Source of the DNA: Octopus vulgaris
Lineage: Eukaryota
Assembly (NCBI GenBank): GCA_951406725.2
Contig: OX597826.1
Location: 8,680,001 to 8,744,000, forward strand
Reading direction: 5' to 3'
Length of the DNA: 64,000 bases
Below, one piece after another: positions 44,953-45,619 of this stretch. Position numbers and translations under genes: made by a program. The notes beneath the pieces were generated by a model. It ran no database searches. It was not told where the DNA came from and saw only the letters and a program-made list of their open reading frames with translations. Each line of letters starts with the position of its first letter. Position 1 is the first letter of the stretch.

Positions 44953-45619
44953 AATAAATATAAGAGAGTGGTCACTATATGGCTCACTCTAGCACCAGTT
45001 AATCCAAAAGGTTTCAACCACAAAAATACTTGTTTCCCATGAAAGTCAGTACGATTGTTAGCTCACCCTTATTAATTAATTATAATTATGCTGCATTTAT
45101 TTCTAAATGCTGTATTTGTTTTCCGTGAAAGTTTGGCGCGCTGTTAGTTGGGGCATTTGAATTATAACGTCGGATGTAATCAATTGAACCACACGCGTAT
45201 TTATCGTTATGGTAAAATCTGGCGTGTGATTGAGTGGATTTCATCCAGATAGTTTTGGCTGACGAGCTACAAGTGGATTTTTTTGTAAGTAAAATTACAT
45301 TTAATTCATTAATAGCGAAACAATTGTCCCAAAATAATCTGTATTTTTGTTATTTTTTATTTGCCCTGTCCGTGTGAGCTAACAATCGTACTGACTTTCA
45401 TGGGAAACAAGTATTTTTGTGGTTGAAACCTTTTGGATTAACTGGTGCTAGAGTGAGCCATATAGTGACCACTCTCTTATATTTATTTTGTAAAAATATT
45501 ATAATATATTATAAAATATTATAATAATCCAGGTTTCTCGGAGCACTAGGCCACTTGGTGTTGAATAGATATACTATTAAATTAGTATCTAATTCTCTCA
45601 CCCTTATTAATTAATTATA
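44953..45619 (+). mobile_element. Non-coding Penelope-type/retrozyme-like element in (TA)n
   Basis: Perfect 114-bp inverted repeat (44953-45066 / 45374-45487), a 23-nt direct terminal repeat (45062-45084 / 45597-45619), an internal hammerhead, and long (TA)n on both sides. Confidence 0.8.
45246..45341 (+). ncRNA. Type I hammerhead ribozyme with an intact core
   Basis: CAGATAGTTTTGG | CTGACGA | GCTA..43 nt..TAGC | GAAA | CAATTG | TC | CCAAAATAATCTG. Stem I pairs at 12 of 13 positions including one G-U. Predicted cleavage is after GUC at 45328. Confidence 0.82.

Follow-up and report, generated by a model that had tools for sequence, protein, structure and literature searches.

How did a 535-nt non-coding sequence with a hammerhead ribozyme motif come to lie between two long (TA)n runs of the Octopus vulgaris genome, with an inverted copy of part of itself joined to its 5′ end? 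We analyzed a window of 64,000 nt around this locus (contig OX597826.1, positions 8,680,001 to 8,744,000), and all positions given here are counted from the first nucleotide of the window. An initial annotation had proposed a young retrozyme mobilized by the proteins of a Penelope-like element (PLE). Quite probably, in our view, the locus represents a very young insertion of a 535-nt hammerhead unit that is non-coding, multi-copy and arranged head to tail (a non-LTR retrozyme), likely copied into (TA)n by the reverse transcriptase (RT) and GIY-YIG endonuclease of a PLE.

Read along its top strand, the locus consists of (TA)n, arm, body and again (TA)n. The left target run is pure (TA)n at 44852-44953 and the right one is a (TA)30 at 45616-45675, which overlaps the last 4 nt of the element. 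Because both flanks are pure (TA)n, a target-site duplication would be invisible. The TA-rich tract on the left begins at about 44801, directly past the end of a dispersed repeat at 44614-44800. The latter is a decayed copy of what we take to be a SINE-like element, with 6 further copies in the window at 66-86% identity. In general the window is rich in microsatellites, and its dispersed repeats resemble SINEs of octopus. The full unit extends from 45062 to 45596 on the plus strand (32% GC), and its first 23 nt (45062-45084) are repeated exactly at 45597-45619 as the start of a next unit. The period is 535 and the match covers exactly 23 nt, extending in neither direction. The inverted arm (44953-45066, minus strand) is a perfect 114-bp reverse complement of the internal segment 45374-45487, and the 5′ ends of arm and body meet head-to-head. 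The inversion joint carries the microhomology CTCAC (45062-45066), the reverse complement of GTGAG at 45374-78; this pentamer occurs once in the whole 535-nt unit. Unit, 23-nt repetition, inverted copy and TA flanks were all part of the initial annotation and were recovered exactly as described there.

The locus thus contains 1.04 units and one hammerhead. It does not show the two consecutive hammerhead units which Li et al. (2026) call active, and in their terms it is therefore a monomer and not a source locus. A second copy of the unit was found nowhere else in the 64-kb window; a 70% match at 45172-45246 was rejected as such a copy as it is the unit's own hairpin. No long terminal repeat was seen at the element. 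The absence of a credible open reading frame also stands, as the longest ATG-led frames in the unit, also across the unit junction, comprise 19 aa (plus strand) and 52 aa (minus strand). When we compared the unit with 24 PLE proteins none of them matched (best E 0.06).

The type I hammerhead is located at 45246-45341 on the plus strand. Stem I is formed by 45246-58 and 45329-41 (7 bp plus 5 bp), stem II has 4 bp (45266-69/45313-16) and stem III is the palindrome ACAAUUGU at 45320-27. The core consists of CUGACGA (45259-65), GAAA (45317-20) and the cleavage triplet GUC, with the cut predicted after its last nucleotide at 45328. Loop II of 43 nt (45270-45312) forms its own hairpin with the pairings 45272-79/45303-10 and 45284-88/45295-99. 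Every coordinate of the annotated motif holds, including the intact core, the palindromic stem III and the length of loop II. We called the hammerhead with our own descriptor and not with a covariance model; on both strands of the 64 kb the type I descriptor matched only here, and it did not match in any of 30 shuffled windows. The Rfam models, which the initial annotation had named as a check, did not bear it out: no hammerhead match was obtained at E up to 5 or 10. Probably the 43-nt loop II is the reason that Rfam misses the motif. The other matches of this search were microsatellite-driven miRNA noise and one match at E 8.6, and no other ribozyme was found in the unit.

The predicted folding energy of the circular unit is −153.8 kcal/mol compared with −105.6 ± 5.3 in 60 dinucleotide shuffles (z −9.2), and the opposite strand reaches −111.9 kcal/mol. 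According to the model, this signal comes from a predicted rod of about 300 nt (45112-45414, plus strand) with 112 pairs, 16 of which are G-U, and with the hammerhead as a branch. The rod is strand-biased, with a folding z of −7.7 on the hammerhead strand versus −4.8 on the opposite strand. Rod and loop II hairpin go beyond what had been annotated before. The predicted minimum fold traps the core by pairing GACGA with UUGUC. In the monomer the catalytic fold has −20.4 versus −27.3 kcal/mol for the minimum, that is the inactive fold is lower by 6.9 kcal/mol. In the modelled dimer the double hammerhead has −315.6 versus −312.8/−310.2 for two monomeric folds, and the inactive fold lies below it with −324.0. 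Across monomer and dimer the inactive fold has an advantage of 6.9-8.4 kcal/mol, and these models predict a weak and dimer-favoured self-cleavage. Dimer-favoured cleavage with a weak palindromic helix III has been described for the axolotl hammerhead HHR_Amex1 (PMC7229834), and 8 of 9 predicted dimers from Xenopus did not cleave (bioRxiv 10.64898/2026.07.22.740005).

Is the unit a single-copy sequence without relatives, which would have spoken against the retrozyme? It is not. The unit belongs to a multi-copy dispersed family: its 56 sampled words are present at a share of 0.70-0.96 in 20 of 24 listed runs (10 studies, 8 coded organism labels). None of the 20 positive runs is on record as RNA, and five of them are contig sets of only 5-52 million letters. 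Some positive runs look metagenomic by size. Contigs from four of the 20 were compared with 45062-45619, namely from run X1, which is treated as a DNA run, from X5, which is guessed to be DNA, and from X6 and X7, which are guessed to be RNA. In the deep run X1 there are 2639 contigs on the unit, covering 30 of 30 bins with a summed depth of 1.3e5-1.4e6, a figure which is not a copy number. The lowest listed depth is 1,200-3,400 times the depth of the contigs with rare joints, and the family probably counts thousands of copies. These rare joints (45203/45578 on opposite strands and 45317→45596) were set aside as possible library chimeras, and the X1 loose ends at 45339 and 45574 presumably stem from a proximity-ligation linker, which they resemble. 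The main contigs of X5 and X6 differ from the window unit at 1 position in 535 nt, in agreement with the young age proposed in the initial annotation.

The unit exists head to tail and without an open reading frame, as tandem or circular 535-nt units; contigs cannot separate a circle from tandem DNA. In X5 the joint 45596→45062 is contained in one contig of 534 nt (one turn) with 178 letters on the short side, and in X6 in the sole contig, which has 565 nt (535+30) and 115 letters on the short side. The joint is absent among those listed for X1 and X7; records 15 and 22 of X7 are compatible with a 30-letter overlap across it, 7 letters of which are inferred. These contigs bear on the explanation that the unit is simply the pseudo-LTR, with its tail and inverted copy, of an ordinary 5′-truncated PLE whose master element carries an RT/endonuclease reading frame. 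A tail, a TA target and an inverted 5′ copy indeed belong to the standard features of PLEs (PMC8557442, PMC3846280) and most PLE hammerheads are single motifs in truncated copies (PMC4209133). However, the contigs of the low-depth runs X5 and X6 pass from 45596 into 45062 unbranched, so that the dominant upstream neighbour of the unit is its own 3′ end and not a PLE reading frame. Also the X1 depth does not increase toward the 3′ end, and the share of contigs which continue into unlike sequence is 0 in X1, X5 and X6 (0.21 in X7). Finally, neither the start nor the end of a reading frame is left in the unit, which differs from an autonomous PLE, where an RT plus GIY-YIG frame lies between the pseudo-LTRs. 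A truncated ordinary PLE is thus improbable in our view. The alternative that had been named at the outset, a solo pseudo-LTR derived from a full Penelope element, is unlikely. We note that 12 of 107 loose ends are listed and that copies attached to a reading frame could be among the rest. A possible ORF-bearing relative is a sister sequence which is common to 45335-45368 and departs from the unit after 45368 at loose ends of X1 and X7. It is possible that this is a second retrozyme family or an autonomous partner. At one X7 loose end (30 letters, one contig) the sister sequence has a hammerhead that retains GAAACAATTGT, with the palindromic stem III unchanged but the other stems replaced, which hints slightly at constraint on the palindrome.

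At three of the six listed X7 loose ends the unit borders on a TA-type microsatellite (before 45346, before 45377 and behind 45499). This suggests that further dispersed insertions lie in similar targets. This is relevant for the idea that the family is a satellite spreading at the DNA level, by unequal crossover or circular DNA, in which an old hammerhead is kept incidentally. The presence of the joint 45596→45062 in X5, guessed DNA, and a depth that is very high and even would suit a satellite. Yet dispersed copies end in TA runs, microhomology marks the head-to-head inversion of the copy in the window, and the fold, which includes 16 G-U pairs, strongly favours one strand. We regard spreading as satellite DNA as very unlikely.

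What speaks for a Penelope-type enzyme? The locus carries two marks of this kind, the inverted 5′-truncated copy beside the 5′ end and the microsatellite target. A head-to-head inverted 5′ copy and a bias for TA targets are described for PLEs (PMC8557442, PMC3846280), where the inverted 5′ arrangement is regular and has been interpreted as self-priming (PMC3846280, PMC8557442). The PLE of the anole makes its nick in AT-rich DNA and initiates at an internal site of its RNA (PMC11167929). In addition the window contains a 5′-truncated PLE fragment at 7272-7999 (plus strand), between a (CA)n/TA run and a (TA)24. It has a decayed Cys linker and, at the C-terminal end, a GIY-YIG domain whose match (E 1.5e-4) falls slightly below the Pfam cut-off. 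The fragment is 87% identical to the longer protein P0001 and shows 44-71% identity to RT-bearing reading frames with a CxxxxCxxC linker and a C-terminal endonuclease, which is the Neptune/Nematis layout (PMC8557442). By its sequence it would represent a suitable class of mobilizing enzyme, which we put forward as a candidate class only. The DNA of the fragment has no similarity to the unit (score 38, shuffles up to 41). A putative decayed hammerhead at 7797-7822 was rejected as not significant, since the relaxed pattern has 9 matches in the window.

Could the arm be a fold-back artefact of sequencing or assembly, with 45062-45619 alone as the true insertion? Arm and body are 100% identical including a rare letter (see below), and the joint of the inversion is listed in none of the four runs, which also fits a private young insertion. 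Against an artefact speaks that the arm gives way to a TA run already at a length of 114 bp and that the flanks differ between the two sides. Moreover, such arms are normal for PLEs (PMC8557442, PMC3846280), an X7 loose end enters a TA run at 45499, only 12 nt from the arm's end, and T>C changes in the arm's region in X7 point to real antisense copies. We therefore hold an artefact to be highly improbable and treat the arm as part of the insertion.

The segment copied by the arm includes position 45410, which is informative as to the template. The window has an A here, and a T is found in at least 99.9% of the X1 depth and in all the depth of X5, X6 and X7; in X1 the A has a summed depth of no more than 600 out of 1,035,303. 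The rare letter is mirrored in the arm at 45030. Since it is common to both, arm and body probably come from one molecule or from a homogeneous donor.

We suggest that the copy in the window could have been made in the following steps. Multimeric transcripts would be cut after 45328, best as a double hammerhead paired via the ACAAUUGU palindromes. The 535-nt monomer would then be closed by a host ligase, as in the retrozymes of coral, mussel and axolotl. A PLE enzyme would nick the TA run, and reverse transcription would begin at the AT-only site 45619; we infer this start from the AT-only end of the second 23-nt copy. In total 558 nt would be copied, that is one turn plus 23 nt. Finally, annealing via CTCAC/GTGAG would allow the 114-nt inverted arm to be added from the same molecule or from the own cDNA. 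The 23-nt redundancy is better read as such an overrun past one unit than as the tail of a PLE, which has 30-40 nt.

The odds between a circular template and a linear multimer are about even. A circle would readily account for the rare letter in both arm and body and for a stop 23 nt beyond one turn. A stop within 23 nt past a whole turn has a chance of about 4% under uniform breaks, a value for one event that was chosen post hoc. Alternatively, the same family could be mobilized in the same Penelope-type way without any circle, from a linear read-through multimer whose hammerhead is weak or dormant. A second priming event, comparable to the twin priming of L1 elements, would then have copied the arm from the unit before, with 109 nt lost at the inversion. 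The geometry fits a span of 781 nt, in which the arm begins 46 nt past one cut site, the 109-nt gap follows and the 3′ end falls 244 nt short of the second cut site after that one. A linear multimer is also in line with the energetic preference for the inactive fold and with the finding that hammerhead mutants of the anole PLE insert normally, uncut RNA being the main substrate (PMC11167929). On the other hand, it requires the rare letter 45410 in two adjacent donor units and a 5′ break which falls by the same small chance 23 nt past exactly one turn, and a dormant hammerhead does not sit well with the X5 and X6 main contigs, in which core, stems and palindrome are intact. As a whole we rate the linear version as a serious possibility that falls somewhat short of being probable.

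The contigs of X7 differ from the unit at 44 places, which comprise 28 A>G, 12 T>C and 4 other changes (26 of the 28 and 7 of the 12 are listed individually). Transitions starting from A or T make up 40 of 42 (p 5e-6 versus base composition). At 18 of the 26 listed A>G sites the change has zero depth in X1, and these include 45318 (A13) and 45320 (A15.1) of the hammerhead core. A preceding G is found at 2 of 26 changed versus 13 of 46 unchanged adenosines (p 0.034), and ADAR disfavours a preceding G (PMC5625713). The changes in X7 are likely A-to-I (ADAR) editing by the host, which would disable some of the hammerheads. Indirectly, they also speak for transcription, for the most part of the hammerhead strand and to some extent of the opposite strand. 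The editing may act on duplexes between sense and antisense RNA that stem from inverted copies. Heavy editing of Penelope and satellite transcripts has been described in lizard and Xenopus (PMC5625713, PMC10636886); our literature search found no report of ADAR editing on a retrozyme. X7 and X1 carry different organism labels, and alleles or subfamilies are a possible source of the changes as well.

Editing does not confirm the predicted rod, because the changed A sites are not enriched in rod pairs (0.58 paired versus 0.59 for the other A) and the 5′ arm of the rod has no change in X7 record 15. Among the 12 common changes in X1, for example at 45191, 45385, 45394, 45418 and 45508, 8 are A>G or T>C (8 of 9 transitions). 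If the changes did run in this direction, these variants at the DNA level could be edited RNAs that were copied back into genomic DNA. Of the 10 common changes listed out of 12, each one within the rod, with the exception of 45410, either preserves pairing as a wobble or sits in a loop. We do not count this as proof of covariation, and two-sided compensatory changes do not occur among the variants listed.

Changes of both polarities in X7, the rod-like fold and the clean single circular contig in X6 might also recall a viroid-like replicon which is copied from RNA to RNA and has left DNA copies in the genome. Viroid-like RNAs with ribozymes have ribozymes in both polarities and no DNA form. 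The unit departs from this on both counts, as its minus strand contains no hammerhead core, Rfam reveals no other ribozyme and the depth in the DNA run is very high. Antisense RNA is explained by inverted genomic copies. We thus consider an RNA replicon extremely improbable.

Taken to its furthest, the retrozyme reading would be that of an octopus family which is spreading at present. Its insertions would record a circular RNA template, with an RT that stalls shortly after a full turn and then doubles back along its own cDNA, and ADAR editing would inactivate the hammerhead core in vivo. We regard this combination as rather doubtful. If true, it would be the first insertion-level evidence that animal retrozyme circles serve as templates of a Penelope-type enzyme and the first case of editing as a brake on a retrozyme's ribozyme; our literature search found neither. 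If the 8 coded labels, under which the unit is present with 0.84-0.96 of its words, are distinct species, the unit would have spread between species very recently.

How does the unit compare with known systems? Non-LTR retrozymes are an already described class (PMC7229834), and the element is an added member of it and not a new kind of system. It shows the marks of the class which could be tested, as the initial annotation had proposed: a type I hammerhead, no coding capacity, a GC content below 50%, head-to-tail arrangement, multiple copies and, by prediction, self-pairing. The metazoan members likewise are non-coding and below 50% GC with head-to-tail type I hammerheads (Cervera and de la Pena 2020, PMC7229834; Li, Clavereau and Pollet 2026), and they are highly self-paired with a weak palindromic helix III and dispersed monomers (PMC7229834; bioRxiv 10.64898/2026.07.22.740005). 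With 535 nt the unit is longer than the typical 150-450 nt (PMC7229834) and within the range of 51-972 nt (bioRxiv 10.64898/2026.07.22.740005). Its own features are the 43-nt hairpin loop II and a hammerhead which is predicted to be blocked in the minimum fold, and the locus is special as a monomer with explicit Penelope-type insertion marks. Circles and cleavage are reported for the metazoan retrozymes, whereas for our unit both are predictions.

With the pseudo-LTRs of endonuclease-positive PLEs of the Neptune type (PMC4209133, PMC8557442, PMC11167929, PMC3846280) the unit shares a hammerhead with a small palindromic helix III, an overlapping head-to-head inverted 5′ copy, the AT/TA target, the internal start of reverse transcription and copies of more than one unit. 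It differs from them in that it lacks the RT/GIY-YIG frame or a remnant thereof, that the units join directly and that the redundancy has 23 nt. The Chlamys PLEs such as MRC1 (PMC8557442) have non-coding, PLE-dependent members with pseudo-LTRs and multicopy head-to-tail insertions. They are algal, however, and mostly without canonical hammerheads, and the non-autonomous ones resemble an autonomous partner at the 3′ end, for which we found no counterpart here (PMC8557442). The hammerhead satellites of newt and axolotl (330-350 bp, PMC7229834) are tandem units of very high copy number as well; their hammerhead depends on a dimer, with one base pair plus a palindromic tetraloop in the helix, and the dimer preference of our unit is a prediction. 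Compared to these satellites the unit is longer, has a different sequence and resides in an invertebrate.

Circles of retrozymes have been reported from coral, mussel and axolotl with PLEs as likely helpers (PMC7229834, PMC7761336, bioRxiv 10.64898/2026.07.22.740005), and a derivation of non-LTR retrozymes from PLE pseudo-LTRs has been argued (bioRxiv 10.64898/2026.07.22.740005). The retrozyme papers leave open which enzyme mobilizes these elements and whether the circle is the template (PMC7229834, PMC7761336), and how the hammerhead is kept inactive within the circle in vivo (PMC7229834). A young, high-copy and near-identical family with clear insertion scars is a test case for enzyme and template, and the editing-like changes at A13 and A15.1 are a candidate for the block in vivo. 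Beyond the routine are thus the youth of the insertion, the scar of a single template and the likely editing of the catalytic core. Our literature search found no cephalopod retrozyme, though supplementary data or names in Repbase/Dfam could contain one; the main text of a paper on O. vulgaris repeats (PMC13282606) is without the words "hammerhead", "ribozyme" or "satellite".

Several minor observations were made along the way. Viral contigs searched with an 18-mer of the unit gave no matches. Twelve metagenome matches to a degenerate hammerhead pattern were taken as chance, since stem I has 0-3 bp in all of them; none resembles the unit beyond the pattern. One X7 contig departs in the middle of loop II at 45285 into at least 255 nt of unrelated sequence and is perhaps a truncated copy in a host transcript. 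Elsewhere in the window, a stop-free frame of 227 codons at 54353-55036 (plus strand) without Pfam match reads like what we take to be the C-terminal end of a non-LTR retrotransposon reading frame, and six CCCTAA copies at 24797-24832 form an interstitial telomere-type repeat.
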